A stretch of DNA of 25,875 bases, taken from contig CBFIGT010000023.1 in assembly GCA_965662175.1 (NCBI GenBank), forward strand, positions 1 through 25,875, given 5' to 3'. A model generated the notes under the pieces. It did no database searches. It saw only the letters and a program-made list of their open reading frames with translations, and was not told the origin of the DNA. The translations under genes were made by a program, and so were the position numbers. How positions within the stretch are numbered: position 1 is the stretch's first letter; each line of letters opens with the position of its first letter. Of the stretch, positions 18,788-25,875 are shown piece by piece. The stretch is from Arcobacter sp. Its GTDB lineage: Bacteria; Campylobacterota; Campylobacteria; Campylobacterales; Arcobacteraceae.

Positions 18788-19051
18788 TTATAATACCATT
18801 TTTATTGAGCTATGTTGCCCCAAAAGTTCATATATTGTCTTCCTATCATCATCATTATGAACAATTAAATCTAATGTGTAACTTTTAAACTTACCTTTTG
18901 CACTCACTTTAGACTCTTTAACACTATGTTCTCTTTCAAGTATAACTTCTTGAACCACTTCTTTGATATTTATTGACTCCAAAACTACAATTTTATAAGC
19001 CCAACTACATGGGTAATCTAACTCTAATTTGTGTTTATTTAAATCAACCAT
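18788..19051 (-). CDS. DUF493/YbeD (HP0495-like) family protein
   Basis: LDYPCSWAYKIV, S.KGKF.SY.L and IY..L.....IKMVL motifs. Confidence 0.88.
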   Translation of the reverse strand: MVDLNKHKLELDYPCSWAYKIVVLESINIKEVVQEVILEREHSVKESKVSAKGKFKSYTLDLIVHNDDDRKTIYELLGQHSSIKMVL

Positions 19052-19539
19052 TATTTTTCTCCAATATTTTCTCTTAAAAATTCGCCACTTTTACCACCTG
19101 ATTTTTTCTCTAATTGAACATTAGAGATAACCATTGATTTATCAATTGCTTTTACCATATCATAAATTGTAAGTAAGCCAACACTAACTCCTGTTAAAGC
19201 TTCCATTTCAACACCTGTTTGACCATTAAGTTTTGCTGTTACAATTAATTTAAACCCCGGTAATTCAGGTAATTCTACAACATCACAATTTATTCCACTT
19301 AATAATAAAGGATGGCACATAGGAATTAATTCACTAGTTTTTTTAACTCCCATAATAGCAGCAATAACAGCTGTTTGTAAAACAGGACCTTTTTTTGTAT
19401 TATTAGAAATAATAGCATCATATGCACTATTTGACATTGAGATTTCCCCTGAAGCCACTGCAACTCTTGTTGTATCTTCTTTTGAAGAGACATCAACCAT
19501 TTTAGGTCTATTATTATTATCTAAATGTGTTAAATCCAA
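19051..19539 (-). CDS. moaC: Cyclic pyranopterin monophosphate synthase MoaC
   Basis: LTHLD...[32 protein letters not shown] and KSGGKSG motifs. TTG start with AGGA RBS. Confidence 0.97.
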
Positions 19540-19610
19540 AACTATTTCCTAAATTTAATTTTTATAATTATATCCTTTTATGGTTAAATTTAAATTAAGC
19601 AAAAGTTAAA

Positions 19611-19616
19611 TATAAT
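19611..19616 (+). promoter_or_regulatory. Putative -10 box for rpsU
   Basis: TATAAT 34 nt upstream of the ATG at 19651, with TTAAG upstream. A divergent TATAAT for moaC lies at 19572-19567. Confidence 0.55.
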
Positions 19617-19650
19617 GAGCCCCAATTTTAAAAAGAAAGAGGGTGATTAC

Positions 19651-19863
19651 ATGCCAGGTATTAAAGTTAAAGATACAGAATCTTTCGACGAAGCATATAG
19701 AAGATTTAAAAAGCAATGTGACAGAAACTTAATTGTTACTGAAACTAGAGCTAGAAGATTTTTTGAACCTATGACTGAAAAAAGAAAGAAACAAAAGATC
19801 TCTGCTAAAAAGAAAATGCTTAAAAGATTATACATGCTTAGAAGATACGAATCTAGACTGTAG
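19651..19863 (+). CDS. rpsU: 30S ribosomal protein S21
   Basis: [22 protein letters not shown]...RRFFEP...YESRL. Start moved to 19651, following the RBS GAGGGTGA. Confidence 0.97.
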
Positions 19864-19881
19864 TAACTACGCATATCGCTT

Positions 19882-19910
19882 AAAGGTCCGATTTTATCGG
19901 GCCTTTTTTT
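19882..19910 (+). terminator. Intrinsic terminator of rpsU, possibly bidirectional with purE; repeat copy A (19878-19913)
   Basis: AAAGGTCCGAT-TTT-ATCGGGCCTTT followed by further T residues. Confidence 0.85.
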
Positions 19911-19955
19911 ATGTTTAAGTTTTTTAAATAACTCTTATTTCTACTCTATTTATAA

Positions 19956-20480
19956 CTATTTTCCCATTGTTTTTAAATATTTTTTATATTTAATATCTTC
20001 TAGTTTATCTATCTTTGCTTGAACTTCATCAAGCATTTTATTTTTGTACTCTTTGATTTTTTCTCTAGTCTCTTTACTTTTTACACCCAATATTTGCGCT
20101 GCTAAAATTCCTGCATTTTTTGCACCATTAATTGCTACAGTTGCAACAGGCACGCCACCTGGCATTTGTACAATTGATAATAATGAATCCATACCCTCTA
20201 AGTTAGAACCTCGAACAGGAACACCAATAACAGGTAATACAGTCAAAGAAGCAACCATTCCAGGTAAATGAGCAGCACCACCGGCACCTGCAATTATAAC
20301 TCTTAATCCTCTTTTTTCAGCACTTTTAGAGTATTTTACTAATCTTTCAGGTGTTCTATGCGCTGATACAACTGTAACTTCATACTCAATTCCAAACTCT
20401 TCACACATTTGTGCAGCTGCACTCATAACTGGTAAGTCCGAATCACTTCCCATGATAATTCCAACTAATGGTTTATTCAT
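19956..20480 (-). CDS. purE: N5-CAIR mutase (class I PurE)
   Basis: [40 protein letters not shown] and [14 protein letters not shown] motifs. Confidence 0.98.
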
Positions 20481-21628
20481 AATCTTTTGCTCCCTCTTAT
20501 TTTTAAAATATTTTTTGCTCTCATTGCTTTTTCTAGTGCCTTATCAATATCATCATCTAAGACTGTAATATGTCCCATCTTCCTAAAAGGTTTAGTATAA
20601 CTTTTTCCATAAAAATGAAAAGATAGTTCAGGAATCTCTAAAGCATCATGAATACCCTCAATAAATGGCTCGCCCTCATATCCCTCTTCACCCAATAAAT
20701 TAACCATAACAGATGGAGAAATTAATTTTGTGGAACCTAAAGGTAAGTTTGTAACAGCTCGAATAATCTGTTCAAATTGTGATGTAGCGCATGATTCAAC
20801 TGTATAATGTCCTGAATTATGAGGTCTTGGTGCAATTTCATTAACCAAAACTTCACCACCTTTTGTTAAAAATAACTCAACACCAAAAATACCAACACCA
20901 CCTAAAGCCTCAATTGATTTAATTGAAACCTCTATTGACTTTTCTTCTATCTCTTTAGAGATTCTAGCAGGTGCCATTACGCTATCGCAGATATTTACTC
21001 TTTCATCAAAAAGCATTTCAACTACAGGATAACATTTTATTTCACCTTGGATATTTCTAGCAACTATTAATGCTAACTCTTTATCAATATCAACAAGCTC
21101 TTCAATAAAAGATTCAGTTTTAATAGCAATTTCAATCTCAGCTTCAGATTTAAGCATCTGAACACCCTTTCCATCATATCCACCCATTTTAGCTTTTTGA
21201 ATTACAGGAAATCCAAAGGCTTTTAAATCATCTTCATTCTCTACATTTTTATAAGCAGGTACAGGAATACCCTTTTCATCTAAAAGCTTTTTTTGCTCAT
21301 ATTTATTTTGAATTAACTCCATTACATAAGGTGATGGAAAAATATTATGCCCATGGTCATATAACTCTTTTAAAATAGATGTATCCACATGTTCTAATTC
21401 AAAAGTAGTTACATCTGTTTCTTGTACAATTTGCTCTAATTTTTCTTTATCGTAAAATCCACCCATAATATGCTTATCAGATACTTGAGCTGCTGGACAA
21501 TTAAATGTAGGGTCTAATATTGTCACATGAAAACCCATTTTTTTAGCTTTTTGAGACATAATTTTACCTAACTGTCCACCACCTATAATTCCTAGTTTTA
21601 AACTAGAGTAATTAAAATCTTTATTCAT
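20477..21628 (-). CDS. purK: N5-CAIR synthetase (ATP-grasp, bicarbonate-dependent)
   Basis: [37 protein letters not shown] and YGK...PFRKMGH motifs. ATGA overlap with purE. Confidence 0.97.
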
Positions 21629-21649
21629 ATTTACTAAACCTTTCTTAAT

Positions 21650-21940
21650 TTATAGTAACATTGAAGCATCAGTAACTATGCACTTTCCGCCATATTTTTT
21701 GATAAAAGATCTAACTTCTTCTTTAATCTCATCAAGTTTTTCCTCTTCACACACTGTAAATATATAGTTATTACTAAGAATATCACTAACTTCATCTGCA
21801 GTTTTTAAACCATGTCCACCACAGCCCTCAATATCTCTTATTATTGTATAACCTGTTATATTTCTATTACTAAATAAATCCAACACTCTACTTAAATAAA
21901 TAGACTCTACTATTATCTCAATTTTTTTCATTTTTTTCAT
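21650..21940 (-). CDS. sbtB: SbtB-like PII-superfamily regulator
   Basis: About 96 aa with MKKIEIIVES...ITGYTIIRDIEG.GGHG (PII fold and T-loop start). Begins 2 nt after the sbtA stop. Start set at ATG 21940. Confidence 0.85.
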   Translation of the reverse strand: MKKMKKIEIIVESIYLSRVLDLFSNRNITGYTIIRDIEGCGGHGLKTADEVSDILSNNYIFTVCEEEKLDEIKEEVRSFIKKYGGKCIVTDASMLL

Positions 21941-21942
21941 AA

Positions 21943-22926
21943 TTAACCCCACAACATATTTATAAAAAAGTAATATAAAGGAATTCCCAAAGAGATATTA
22001 AAAGGGAAAGTAACAGCTAAACTAAGAGGTAAATAAATACCAGGATTTGCCTCAGGTACAGATAATCTCATAGCAGCAGGAACAGCTATATAAGAAGCAC
22101 TACCACTTAATAATGCTAATAAAAATGCATCACCTTTTGATAATTCAAAAAAGTAAGCTAATCCCATAGCAACAGATGCATTAAAAATAGGCATTGCTAT
22201 TGCAAATATAATTAAAAATATACCAAGTTTCTTTAACTCATAAATTCTTTTTGCGGCAACTAATCCCATATCAAGAAGGAAAAAAGCCAGCATCCCTTTA
22301 AATAAACTACCAAATAATGGCTCCATTGAATCCCAACCTTTTTGCCCAGTTAAAATTCCTATAATTAAAGCCCCTATTAATAAATAAACAGATGGATTTA
22401 AAAATGCTTCCCTTAAAATCTCTTTCCAATCAGTACTTTTTTTAACATCATCATTACTACTACCTTTTGCAAATATAGCTGCAAAAACTAATCCCATTAC
22501 AATAGCAGGCGACTCCATAAGAGTCATAGCAGCAACCATATAACCACCATATTCAACCCCAATTGTTTGAAGATAAGTAACACCTGTTATAAAAGTAACA
22601 GCACTTATAGAACCATAAGTAGCAGCAACCGCCACTGCATTATAATTATCTAACTTAATTCTTAAAATGAAATAACTATAAATGGGAACTAAAGTTGCCA
22701 TAAAAACCGCTAATAATAGAGCTTTAAATATATAAATATCTAAGCCACTTTTTGAAAGCTCATATCCACCATGAAGTCCAATTGCAATCAAAAGGTACAG
22801 TGAAAAAAGTTTGGGTAATGGTTGTGGTATTGATAGGTCTGATTTAAAAAAAACAGCTAACATACCAAGAAAAAAGAATAATATTGGAGGATTTAAAATA
22901 TTTTGAATTATTAAATCAATACTCAT
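21943..22926 (-). CDS. sbtA: Sodium-dependent bicarbonate transporter SbtA family permease
   Basis: P.ILFFFLG...KSDL.IP, LYLLIAIGLHGG, AATYGSISAVTF, MESPAI, FFLLDMGL, SASYIAVPAAMR...PEANP and TFPFNI..GIPLY motifs. RBS AGGTGG. Confidence 0.93.
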   Translation of the reverse strand: MSIDLIIQNILNPPILFFFLGMLAVFFKSDLSIPQPLPKLFSLYLLIAIGLHGGYELSKSGLDIYIFKALLLAVFMATLVPIYSYFILRIKLDNYNAVAVAATYGSISAVTFITGVTYLQTIGVEYGGYMVAAMTLMESPAIVMGLVFAAIFAKGSSNDDVKKSTDWKEILREAFLNPSVYLLIGALIIGILTGQKGWDSMEPLFGSLFKGMLAFFLLDMGLVAAKRIYELKKLGIFLIIFAIAMPIFNASVAMGLAYFFELSKGDAFLLALLSGSASYIAVPAAMRLSVPEANPGIYLPLSLAVTFPFNISLGIPLYYFFINMLWG

Positions 22927-22960
22927 TAATTTACCACCTAATTTTTTTATAAATTCTCGA

Positions 22961-22966
22961 ATTTTA
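22961..22966 (-). promoter_or_regulatory. Putative -10 box for sbtA-sbtB-purK-purE
   Basis: TTTAAG-TAAAAT on the minus strand, 34 nt upstream of the sbtA ATG. Confidence 0.5.
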
Positions 22967-22986
22967 CTTAAATAATATTTTAATTA

Positions 22987-23022
22987 GCTTAAAGCCTCGA
23001 TTTTATCGAAGCTTTTTTTATG
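22987..23022. repeat. 36-bp hairpin, copy B of 19878-19913; probable pyk terminator
   Basis: GCTTAAAGcctCGATTTTATCGaagCTTTTTTTATG versus GCTTAAAGgtcCGATTTTATCGggcCTTTTTTTATG, 30/36 identical. Confidence 0.8.
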
Positions 23023-23040
23023 GCTATTAGAAATTTATAA

Positions 23041-24519
23041 TTATTTTAAACTCTTCTGTTTCTTTTTCTCTTTAGGAAGTTCTATATAATATTTTAACTC
23101 AGCAGGTGTTAATATTTTTATAGTATTAGTACTTCCTGGTTGTCCAACAGGATATCCAAAAGTTGCAATATATATTGCATTTTTATCTAAATAACCCCTT
23201 TCATCTAATTTTTTTAACATTGTTTGTATCATAGCTGATGCACCAGCTTCTTTTATTTTTGCTATAGGTTCAACACCCCATAATCCACACATAGGATTTA
23301 AAACTCTTCTTTTATGGGTAAACATATAAATATTAGTTTTTGGTCTATATCGTGATATTTTTCTCCCTGATAATCCAGAACTTGTTAAAGCAATAATTCC
23401 TTTTGCCCCAATATCATCAGCTAGTTTTGTTGCTGTTCCTTGAATAACATCAAAATTATCATTATAAGCTAACTTATTATGTTTATCATATGGATATATC
23501 TCTTCTGTTTTAGCAATAATATTTGCCATTGTTCTAACTGTATTAATTGGGTCAATTCCAACAGCACTCTCCTCAGAAAGCATAACAATATCTGTCCCAT
23601 CTAAAACAGCATTTGCAACATCTGAAATTTCAGCTCTTGTAGCTCTTTCGTTATGTGTCATTGATAAAAGCATTTGTGTTGCTGTAATTACAGGAATACA
23701 AGCCTCATTTGCTTTTTTAATAAGGGTTTTTTGAATTGTTGGTACCTCATAATAAGAAACTTCAATTCCAAGGTCTCCTCTAGCTACCATAATTCCATCA
23801 CTAACTTCTATAATTTCATCAATATTTTGAACAGCATCAAATTTCTCAATTTTCGCAATTAATTTACCCTCATAATCTCCAAGTAATTCTCTTGCTTTTT
23901 CCATATCTTTTTTGTTTTGAACAAAAGATATTGCAAAATAATCAACCTTATTTTTAACACCCCATGCAATATCTTCTTCATCTTTTCTTGTAATAACATT
24001 AATATCTATTACAGTATTTGGAAAATTTATTCCTTTTTTTGATGTAAGTGTTCCATGGTTTTCAACTAAGGCAACAACTTTTTCACCTGTTTCAATCACT
24101 TTTGCTCTAATTGTCCCATCATAAAGATATATATACTCATCAATTTTTACCTTATCCAATAACTCAGGATAGTTTGTAGATACTATATATTTTTTATCAG
24201 CCACTTTGTAACCAATAATTTCATCTTTTACAAATGTAATCTCATCACCTTGAAAAAGTTCAAACTTATCTTTTATCTCACCAATTCTAACTTTAGGTCC
24301 TGAAATATCTTGTAATACTGCAATTGTAACATCTAATTTATTCATAACTTTTCTAATATTTTTCAATGTTTCTAAATGATATTCATGATCCCCATGTGAA
24401 AAATTTAATCTAAACATATTTGTACCAGCTTTAACTAGTCCCTCTATCATTTCAACACTATTACTTGCAGGTCCAAGTGTTGCCAGAATTTTTGTCTTTT
24501 TATAAACAGTTTTATACAT
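23041..24519 (-). CDS. pyk: Pyruvate kinase
   Basis: KTKILATLGPAS, FRLNFSHG, IAKIEK, MVARGDLG, ATQMLLSM and RAEISDVANAVLDGTD motifs. ATG 24519 chosen because it sits 6 nt after AAGGA. Confidence 0.98.
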   Translation of the reverse strand: MYKTVYKKTKILATLGPASNSVEMIEGLVKAGTNMFRLNFSHGDHEYHLETLKNIRKVMNKLDVTIAVLQDISGPKVRIGEIKDKFELFQGDEITFVKDEIIGYKVADKKYIVSTNYPELLDKVKIDEYIYLYDGTIRAKVIETGEKVVALVENHGTLTSKKGINFPNTVIDINVITRKDEEDIAWGVKNKVDYFAISFVQNKKDMEKARELLGDYEGKLIAKIEKFDAVQNIDEIIEVSDGIMVARGDLGIEVSYYEVPTIQKTLIKKANEACIPVITATQMLLSMTHNERATRAEISDVANAVLDGTDIVMLSEESAVGIDPINTVRTMANIIAKTEEIYPYDKHNKLAYNDNFDVIQGTATKLADDIGAKGIIALTSSGLSGRKISRYRPKTNIYMFTHKRRVLNPMCGLWGVEPIAKIKEAGASAMIQTMLKKLDERGYLDKNAIYIATFGYPVGQPGSTNTIKILTPAELKYYIELPKEKKKQKSLK

Positions 24520-24632
24520 ATACATTCCTTATATTGAATTAATAATTTTAAATACTTTTTTGTAAATATATTCAACTATAATATAGCTAAAAACTCCAAA
24601 TTAGTAGTTAAATTTATAAAACTAATATTAAT

Positions 24633-25643
24633 CTATAAAATAGCATAAGATAATCTATTTCTTCCACCACGTTTAGACTTATATAGCTCTTTATCGGCCT
24701 TTTCATATACTAATTTAATATCATTTATCTTATTTACAACGCTAATCATTCCTAAAGAGATTGTAACTTTATTGTAATTAAAGTTATTCAAGTGTTCAAT
24801 ATCTAGATTTTCTACTCTTTTTCTAATTTTTTCAACAAACTCTTTTGCATACTTAATTGACTTAGAATCAAATATTAATGCAAACTCTTCACCACCAATT
24901 CTAAATAAATAATCACTCTCTCTTAGTAATATTTTATTTATTTCAGTTGATATAGTTTTTAATACATAATCACCTTTTACATGGCCATATAAATCATTAT
25001 ATTTCTTAAAACTATCAACATCAATTAATACAAAATTTATAATTTGTTGCTCTTCTCTATCATTCTCAATTTTACTTTTAAATATTTCATCAAATTTTCT
25101 TCTATTAAATAATCCAGTTAAAGAGTCTAAATATGAGAGTTTACTAAGTAATTTATTCTGATTATCAAGAAGTAATTGATTGTTTTTTAAATCAGTAACA
25201 TCTAACATTGTTCCAACTAAACCAATAACCTCGTTATTGATATTAAAAACTGTTGCCTTATAAAAATAAAATGTTCTAATTTCTCCATTAGCACATTTAA
25301 CTTTCCCCTCATAATATTGTGTTCCAGGATTTTCAAATAATTCAGTATCTTTTTTTTCATATAATTTAGCTAGTTCAAAAGGAATTTCATCAGGTAATTC
25401 AAACAATGTTTTCCCAATAATCTTTTCTTTTGGAATACCCAAAATAGTTTTTGAAAATGAGTCATTTAATGTTCGATAAACGCCATTTATATCTTTAAAA
25501 AAAACTGGATTAGGAATGGTGTTAATTAAAATATTTAAAAACTGTTTGTGATTAGAAATCTCTTTTTCCATATCACTCATTTTTTTAATTTTAGATTCTA
25601 ATATCTTTACTTTATTTTCAAGTTGTTCATATGTTAATTTCAT
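24633..25643 (-). CDS. PAS-domain diguanylate cyclase
   Basis: N-terminal coiled coil, PAS domain (IPNPVFFKDING...N..F), D.LTGLFNRR, DVDSFKKYND.YGH..GD, I-site RESD and active-site GGEEF. Confidence 0.93.
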   Translation of the reverse strand: MKLTYEQLENKVKILESKIKKMSDMEKEISNHKQFLNILINTIPNPVFFKDINGVYRTLNDSFSKTILGIPKEKIIGKTLFELPDEIPFELAKLYEKKDTELFENPGTQYYEGKVKCANGEIRTFYFYKATVFNINNEVIGLVGTMLDVTDLKNNQLLLDNQNKLLSKLSYLDSLTGLFNRRKFDEIFKSKIENDREEQQIINFVLIDVDSFKKYNDLYGHVKGDYVLKTISTEINKILLRESDYLFRIGGEEFALIFDSKSIKYAKEFVEKIRKRVENLDIEHLNNFNYNKVTISLGMISVVNKINDIKLVYEKADKELYKSKRGGRNRLSYAIL

Positions 25644-25742
25644 ATTATAATAATATCAAAAAATTGCTCTATAATGTGTAGTTTTGAAGAAAAATAAGAG
25701 TATTAGAAGATAATAATAACTTTTTGTTATAAATAAGAAGCC

Positions 25743-25792
25743 AAAAAAAAAGCTTAGCACTTCACCCTGTAAGGATAAAAAGCTAAGCTTTT
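25743..25792 (-). terminator. rRNA operon terminator
   Basis: Minus strand AAAAGCTTAGC...GCTAAGC followed by T9, just downstream of the 5S gene. Confidence 0.85.
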
Positions 25793-25807
25793 AAAAACAC
25801 TCAAGAG

Positions 25808-25875
25808 TTGGCGACGACTTACGTTTCCACAAGGGGACCCTGCAGTATTATCAGCGATGAAGTGCTTGACTTCCG
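25808..25875 (-). rRNA. rrf: 5S rRNA, 3' part (continues past the window end)
   Basis: Minus strand CGGAAGTCAAGCACTTCATCGCTGATAATACTGCAGGGTCCCCTTGTGGAAACGTAAGTCGTCGCCAA matches the 3' half of bacterial 5S. Abrupt GC rise and a terminator follows. Confidence 0.93.

Follow-up and report, generated by a model that had tools for sequence, protein, structure and literature searches.

A conserved accessory sbtA-sbtB-purK-purE block in Arcobacter, a probable low-CO2 module

Introduction

The SbtA bicarbonate permeases of cyanobacteria and their small partner proteins, SbtB, are the closest described relatives of one half of a four-gene block, sbtA-sbtB-purK-purE, which we analyzed in a stretch of 25,875 nt from Arcobacter sp. 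(assembly GCA_965662175.1, contig CBFIGT010000023.1, positions 1 to 25,875; referred to below, at its full length, as the window). Passages of Rourke et al. 2026 (PMC13187645) place the split between the classes SbtA1 and SbtA2 at 20–27% and report that three of five SbtA2 homologues rescue carbonic-anhydrase-free Escherichia coli in air, and that SbtA2 uptake (K0.5 approx. 150 µM) has no Na+ requirement, is stimulated by chloride and sulfate and is lowered by SbtB2. The SbtA1-SbtB system of Synechocystis is represented by solved structures (PDB 7CYE/7CYF), and SbtB1 binds AMP and cAMP (PMC8352866).

The other half of the block encodes enzymes of purine synthesis: PurK ligates bicarbonate to 5-aminoimidazole ribonucleotide (AIR) using ATP, and PurE rearranges the product (PMC10880623, PMC10912719; both cited, like PMC13147460, from excerpts). 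Without PurK, PurE suffices only where inorganic carbon is abundant, and purK mutants of cyanobacteria depend on high CO2 (PMC10880623). In the inorganic-carbon toolkit of Campylobacterota and Aquificota (PMC10880623, PMC13147460), transporter genes adjoin carboxylase genes, as they do in our block, with purK under discussion as a marker for adaptation to low CO2; that toolkit, however, belongs to autotrophs, no link between sbtA and purK is drawn in these excerpts, and "purK" occurs 0 times in that of PMC13147460. A further parallel is known from mammalian cells, where the mTORC1-SLC4A7 system raises bicarbonate import for de novo purine synthesis (excerpt of PMC10912719), although by way of an unrelated transporter, through translational control and without a gene cluster.

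The best explanation of the Arcobacter locus, to which we assign a probability of about 0.65 on the basis of sequence comparisons, is that it is an accessory low-CO2 module which would add bicarbonate uptake to the cell and replace the spontaneous carboxylation of AIR by an ATP-driven step. The protein families are known and the module is conserved; no description of the sbtA-purK combination was found in the literature searched, a search whose coverage excludes most subscription journals.

Results

Organization of the block

The block occupies the minus strand and consists of four intact open reading frames (ORFs; Table 1). The sbtA and sbtB genes are separated by 2 nt, sbtB and purK by 21 nt, and purK and purE overlap by 4 nt (ATGA). 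The original prediction, made from the DNA letters alone, had described exactly this arrangement of co-directional genes, and the family profiles agree with the identities that it proposed; the hairpins that it placed at both ends are present, and the 29 ORFs of the window, nine of them covered by a Pfam scan, include no further recognisable pur gene and none for carbon fixation. The tight spacing favours co-transcription of the four genes. The pyk gene lies on the same strand, 114 nt upstream of sbtA, and rpsU converges from the opposite side. One 4471-nt contig from a wastewater run (perhaps not independent of the source of the window) covers positions 19839-24306 with 18 differences, which argues against misassembly.

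Table 1. Features of the sbtA-sbtB-purK-purE region (window coordinates)
Feature	Position	Strand	Description
sbtA	21943..22926	-	327 aa; predicted bicarbonate permease, SbtA2-class; PF05982, 401 bits
sbtB	21650..21940	-	96 aa, counted from an ATG 2 nt behind the sbtA stop codon; PII-like; PF00543
purK	20477..21628	-	383 aa; N5-CAIR synthetase; TIGR01161 and NF004679 above cut-off
purE (second copy)	19956..20480	-	174 aa; class I N5-CAIR mutase; TIGR01162 above cut-off
candidate -10 box TAAAAT	22961..22966	-	34 nt 5' of the sbtA start; from sequence
hairpin between pyk and sbtA	22987..23022		minus-strand fold -13.4 kcal/mol; resembles the rpsU terminator
rpsU terminator hairpin	19878..19913		listed by the terminator scan at 19882-19906 (plus strand); also the first hairpin 3' of purE
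N5-CAIR, N5-carboxyaminoimidazole ribonucleotide.

SbtA and SbtB

The match of SbtA to its Pfam profile (cut-off 27 bits) extends over profile positions 1-307 of 308. The protein is 53% identical over 328 aa to the SbtA of locus L223, which adjoins a carboxysome shell gene and the gene of form I Rubisco (rbcL); both crossover motifs are the same in the two proteins, and across the homologues the motifs are conserved in 84/88 and 88/88 sequences. Used as a query, the window SbtA finds two cyanobacterial classes, one at 26–34% identity and the other mostly at 54–63%. Its match to the solved Synechocystis SbtA1 (7cye) is weak (E 3e-26) and broken into two stretches, and pairwise alignment at the bicarbonate site of SbtA1 shows S114 and S324 kept (as S108 and S278), while Y140 and S327 are replaced by M134 and A281. 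Being nearer to the carboxysome-linked SbtA than to SbtA1, and accompanied by an sbtB partner, the permease falls into the SbtA2 class, an assignment made through the L223 homologue. The locus thus resembles cyanobacterial SbtA2-SbtB2 (excerpts of PMC13187645) in this identity, in the crossover motifs, in a short central loop and in the small PII-like protein encoded downstream, and differs in its purK-purE neighbours and in its host, whose 94%-complete genome yielded no Rubisco and nothing above cut-off for ATP-citrate lyase. With Synechocystis SbtA1-SbtB it shares the Pfam family, the gene order and the two retained serines; the remaining site residues set it apart, as do the lack of a CGPxGC motif in SbtB and a Na+ requirement that is not expected. 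The label of Na+/HCO3- symporter given in the original prediction is therefore probably wrong for this protein, as the tested SbtA2 proteins are not Na+-driven, and the window SbtA is likely, judging by its sequence, to import bicarbonate.

The SbtB profile match reaches 57.9 bits, above the cut-off, for a longer, GTG-started frame. The protein also matches PII-like structures (E 2e-5) and is encoded directly after sbtA, a position that sbtB holds in nearly all loci extending past sbtA, so that it is classed as PII-like. The C-terminal redox motif CGPxGC, present in some homologues only, does not occur in its sequence. Residues of the glycine-rich loop are conserved across 75 homologues, and binding of adenyl nucleotides is putative; by analogy with SbtB2, the protein would damp bicarbonate uptake. 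A non-coding stretch just 5' of sbtA (22927-22962, minus strand) carries an in-frame likeness to the C-terminal part of SbtB (7/11 residues), which may be the relic of a second sbtB or a chance match in AT-rich DNA.

PurK, PurE and the host genome

PurK scores 409 bits with TIGR01161 (cut-off 318) and only 173 with the PurT profile TIGR01142 (cut-off 502), and its best solved relative is 3ax6 (519 bits). It is the only purK found in the genome, another hit (C12) being 27% identical and PurT-like. The PurE of the block (TIGR01162, 225 bits against a cut-off of 150) matches class I structures with E values from 4e-74 (1o4v, the best) to 3e-40, and direct AIR carboxylases at 7e-16 or weaker. A second, native purE, for which the original prediction had proposed to look, is present at C21:15016-15510; it is 49% identical and lies in a housekeeping context without purK. 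Its product matches class I structures at 1e-47 to 1e-32, and 3rg8 and PAICS/ADE2 at 5e-11 or weaker. Both copies thus resemble N5-CAIR mutases more closely than they do direct AIR carboxylases, where the class labels of the PDB entries are in part our assumption; 3ax6 and 1o4v we take to be proteins of Thermotoga maritima. Both genes of the block pass the curated cut-offs of bacterial PurK and PurE, and they differ from the usual systems in their order (purK-purE), in their location outside a pur operon and in being accessory, usually added to a native, PurK-less purE (33/40 carriers of this purK).

The host genome (2.6 Mb, 27.8% GC, 94% complete) contains one beta-carbonic anhydrase gene and two SulP-family genes. 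Of the carbonic anhydrase and DabAB genes that the original prediction had wished to trace, the anhydrase is therefore present, whereas DabA, like alpha-anhydrase, was not found at this completeness. Neither was Rubisco (PF00016), the sink of a CO2-concentrating mechanism, and no match to ATP-citrate lyase exceeded the cut-off; together these negative results suggest that the host, whose assembly is incomplete, is probably heterotrophic. In GC content and in GC at third codon positions (GC3), the four genes do not stand out from the rest of the genome (GC3 percentiles 66–80). A recent foreign origin was rejected on these grounds, and the block would have been either ameliorated or acquired from kin.

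Distribution and linkage of sbtA and purK

In a survey of 167 Arcobacteraceae genomes, sbtA was present in 30 and this purK in 40; weak sbtA matches in five more genomes (E about 1e-5) and three purK matches at 32–36% identity were not counted. Both genes occur in 27 genomes and are adjacent in every one of them (27/27), which bears out the neighbourhood conservation on which the original prediction depended; 13 genomes have purK-purE only, three have sbtA-sbtB only and 124 have neither. The Fisher p for the co-occurrence is 4e-18, a value that overstates the case since related genomes are not independent. In line with the original prediction, this purK is also missing from most relatives: it was found neither in the other 127 family genomes nor in 350 further genomes of the phylum. 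The latter draw, which yielded no sbtA either, seems skewed, because it included 17 family genomes of which none matched. Neither gene was present in the seven other genomes of the same genus (0/7).

Among SbtA loci of GTDB genomes (n=80), the complete block in this gene order is present in 22, and two others break off within purK. These 24 all belong to the 39 loci of Campylobacterota type; in the remaining 41, which come from Aquificota, cyanobacteria, Bacteroidota and other groups, no purK lies near sbtA. The flanks of the block fall into at least 11 contexts, which include moaA/rpsO, nrdD/argF, nhaA, icd/dabA and a gene for biotin carboxylase. Of 80 metagenomic purK loci, 29 are of the cassette type, with sbtA-sbtB directly upstream in nine and inverted downstream in one; many of the remaining cassette-type loci are short contigs. 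In L145, sbtA and purK remain within 1 kb even after inversion. In a second family (around G502, n=101), sbtA occurs in eight genomes, purK in nine and both in seven, where they are adjacent (three), within 10 kb (one) or on different contigs (three).

Other lineages of the two genes have been paired separately. In two of 51 distant purK loci (L161, L166), a purK of 46–48% identity is followed downstream by purE, a DUF6671 gene and an sbtA of 42–47%, and in L203 (Sulfurovaceae, with sbtA-sbtB) a different purK-purE pair is inserted two genes from the native purE. In G102 (L100:4970-6529) we noted an unrelated purE-purK in the usual order (36% identity to the window PurK), a further separate acquisition. 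Directly before sbtA in L166 (6317-6769) lies a gene for a 150-aa protein without a Pfam match, whose cysteine motif presumably recalls beta-carbonic anhydrase. Twenty plasmid records contain an SbtA homologue, with no purK or purE in the three neighbourhoods inspected. For a reported adjacency of purK and rbcLS in Synechococcus PCC 7942, no confirmation was found in the literature searched.

Neighbours of sbtA-sbtB in other bacteria

In Sulfurovaceae and Sulfurimonadaceae, close sbtA-sbtB homologues adjoin genes of isocitrate dehydrogenase, biotin carboxylase, TsaC/Sua5, SulP and DUF6671; in Aquificaceae they adjoin a 2-oxoacid:ferredoxin oxidoreductase cluster, and in L043 the pair follows carB. 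Since the neighbours include other carboxylase genes, the pump is probably not dedicated to purines. The claim that it is "wired to purine biosynthesis" is consequently overstated, given also that the two halves occur separately (13 and three genomes), but the linkage underlying it is conserved. According to excerpts of a preprint (bioRxiv 10.64898/2026.09.08.750065), chemical complementation did not rescue bicarbonate-deficient mutants of Bacillus subtilis, which fits several bicarbonate sinks.

Some of these neighbours recur. DUF6671 genes lie beside sbtA, icd or purK-purE in L030, L068, L069, L070, L161 and L166 (Campylobacterota and Bacteroidota-type), and DUF6671 is probably an inorganic-carbon-related protein. 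TsaC/Sua5, which also uses bicarbonate and ATP, is encoded within a few genes of sbtA-sbtB in L004, L020, L030 and L067. A cluster of about 10 kb in G502 (L202:4826-14679) comprises sbtA-sbtB, an AraC/GyrI regulator, a 486-aa isocitrate dehydrogenase, SulP, DUF6671, an aminotransferase and purK-purE; it may represent a larger low-CO2 island.

Gain and loss of the block

In a quick tree of 88 SbtA rows (excluding four duplicates and partial hits; Shimodaira-Hasegawa-like approximate likelihood ratio test, SH-aLRT, without bootstrap), all 29 purK-linked SbtA fall into one Campylobacterota clade of 44 rows (SH-aLRT 98). The protein distances of sbtA and purK are correlated (rho 0.45 across 30 loci; 0/499 permutations), as expected of a jointly travelling unit, a correlation that kinship alone also yields.

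In G032 and G158, what is left of sbtA (its start) and of sbtB (its end) has collapsed into a deletion scar in front of an intact purK, and similar remnants are present in L137 and L139. Full and purK-purE-only versions exist side by side at the moaA/rpsO, nrdD/argF and rpsU sites. Most of the purK carriers retain two purE genes, as noted above, and the other seven, including one complete genome, show the cassette copy only. PurK-PurE thus appears to be the more lasting half, because sbtA-sbtB is often deleted while purK-purE stays, sometimes replacing the native purE.

Promoter candidate, hairpins and flanking DNA

The block had been credited with a candidate promoter of its own. A -10-like box is indeed present, reading along the minus strand from 22966 to 22961, but it was not listed by a sigma-70 scan. 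In 38 of 44 homologous loci, the region 15–90 nt ahead of the first gene contains a TAnAAT box, compared with a mean of 23 and a maximum of 32 in shuffled sequences. The two flanking hairpins are identical at 30 of 36 nt, and the 7-T tail of both is on the plus strand, so that for transcription of the minus strand they resemble weak terminators; transcription of pyk may read through into sbtA. One metatranscriptome gave short contigs on purE, purK and sbtA, from which strand, level and co-transcription are not readable. No riboswitch or known RNA was detected in 19000-25875 besides a partial 5S rRNA at the contig end (25806-25875).

The 11-nt core common to both hairpins occurs only twice in the genome, and a third terminator, on C31, matches 29 of 36 nt of the hairpin. 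A target-site duplication was rejected, as the C31 terminator makes a family of terminators an equally good explanation. An empty insertion site was not found: in the two same-genus genomes where both genes could be placed, pyk lies apart from rpsU. The pyk gene itself (23041-24525) is 71–74% identical to the pyk of relatives and stands in a different context from theirs. G158, placed in another genus, has (at L096:2160-2230) the same rpsU terminator core and insertion site as the window, with a PurK of 97% and a PurE of only 86% identity; the terminators of same-genus genomes differ from that of the window, unlike the one in G158. This likeness hints at transfer by recombination near rpsU.

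Discussion

The proposed action of the block can be outlined as follows. An SbtA2-type permease would import bicarbonate, which PurK, spending ATP, would attach to AIR to form N5-CAIR for the adjoining PurE. A native PurE without PurK would depend on the spontaneous carbamylation of AIR, and so on high CO2 or bicarbonate; since most family members have a purE of class I but lack purK, AIR carboxylation would be the most CO2-sensitive step. The block would lift this bottleneck from both sides, by bicarbonate supply and by an ATP-driven enzyme. Imported bicarbonate would join a pool shared with acetyl-CoA carboxylase, carbamoyl-phosphate synthase and pyruvate carboxylase, and the link between the two gene pairs would therefore lie in co-selection and co-expression and not in channelling. 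A benefit would probably arise only under certain conditions, at low cell density in purine-free, CO2-poor water.

Several observations weigh against an accessory low-CO2 module. Only two of the four bicarbonate-site residues of SbtA1 are retained, and two of the five SbtA2 homologues were inactive in E. coli (excerpts of PMC13187645). Neither half is present in 124 of 167 family genomes, and beta-carbonic anhydrase is encoded in 162 of 167 as well as in the host, where a cytoplasmic anhydrase would leak the pumped bicarbonate. The surroundings of the Arcobacteraceae copies revealed neither a regulator gene nor a shared operator, so that low-CO2 induction is not indicated, and the single SbtA clade implies that most Campylobacterota copies share one origin of the link. 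The contigs from RNA libraries (151–236 nt) are too short, none usefully bridging two genes. The near-universal anhydrase and the many genomes without the block also make it unlikely that the block is what enables the host to grow at ambient CO2, as had been suggested. Replacement of carbonic anhydrase by sbtA was rejected, as all 30 sbtA carriers also have the beta-anhydrase. The only DabA carrier of the 167 genomes, G070 (C6:65838-68609), is among the five without a beta-anhydrase match.

The single clade would also be expected if two separately useful pairs had been joined once and had spread together horizontally, with little functional interplay today, and the 13 purK-purE-only and three sbtA-sbtB-only genomes and the deletion scars in G032, G158, L137 and L139 point the same way. 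We nevertheless regard such hitch-hiking as quite unlikely, because purK is kept by 27 of the 30 sbtA carriers, the genes co-occur even where they are not adjacent (G502, G697, G503), and other lineages of sbtA and purK have been paired separately (L161, L166). A still closer relationship, in which SbtA feeds PurK preferentially and SbtB reads adenylates as feedback from the pathway, possibly binding PurK, would account for the translational coupling of all four genes, the 27/27 adjacency, the proximity retained after inversion in L145 and the AMP/cAMP binding of SbtB1 (PMC8352866). It is very unlikely, however, in that sbtB goes with sbtA and not with purK, sbtA and sbtB being lost together in the purK-purE-only genomes, and in that close sbtA-sbtB homologues adjoin other carboxylase genes; moreover, bicarbonate diffuses freely in the cytoplasm.

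The permease might instead move another anion or serve pH or ion balance, which would leave purK-purE alone as the low-CO2 adaptation. The replacement of Y140 and S327, the two inactive homologues, and the unresolved driving ion and chloride/sulfate stimulation of SbtA2 (excerpts of PMC13187645) are compatible with such a role. Against it stand the crossover motifs, which match those of the carboxysome-linked L223 protein and are kept in nearly all homologues, and the inorganic-carbon genes that are repeatedly its neighbours across phyla; we consider this role highly unlikely. The accessory low-CO2 module thus remains our preferred explanation. An extension of it, in which purine synthesis and not carbon fixation is the main reason why non-photosynthetic bacteria keep SbtA2-SbtB2, the block being a transferable, purine-directed CO2-concentrating module with SbtB as adenylate feedback on import for PurK, and with gain and loss tracking habitat CO2, is speculative and in our view unlikely.

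The linkage bears on the role of the SbtA family in bacteria without Rubisco, and on PurK as a low-CO2 adaptation, as proposed in the excerpts of PMC10880623. The Arcobacteraceae offer a natural experiment, in which 124 genomes have neither half, 27 both, 13 purK-purE only and three sbtA-sbtB only, some at the same site and with visible scars, and each of the four gene states would be expected to differ from the others in its need for CO2 and purines. With this permease the SbtA2 class, itself only recently characterised, comes to include a likely heterotroph, and the protein could serve to find the driving ion of SbtA2.

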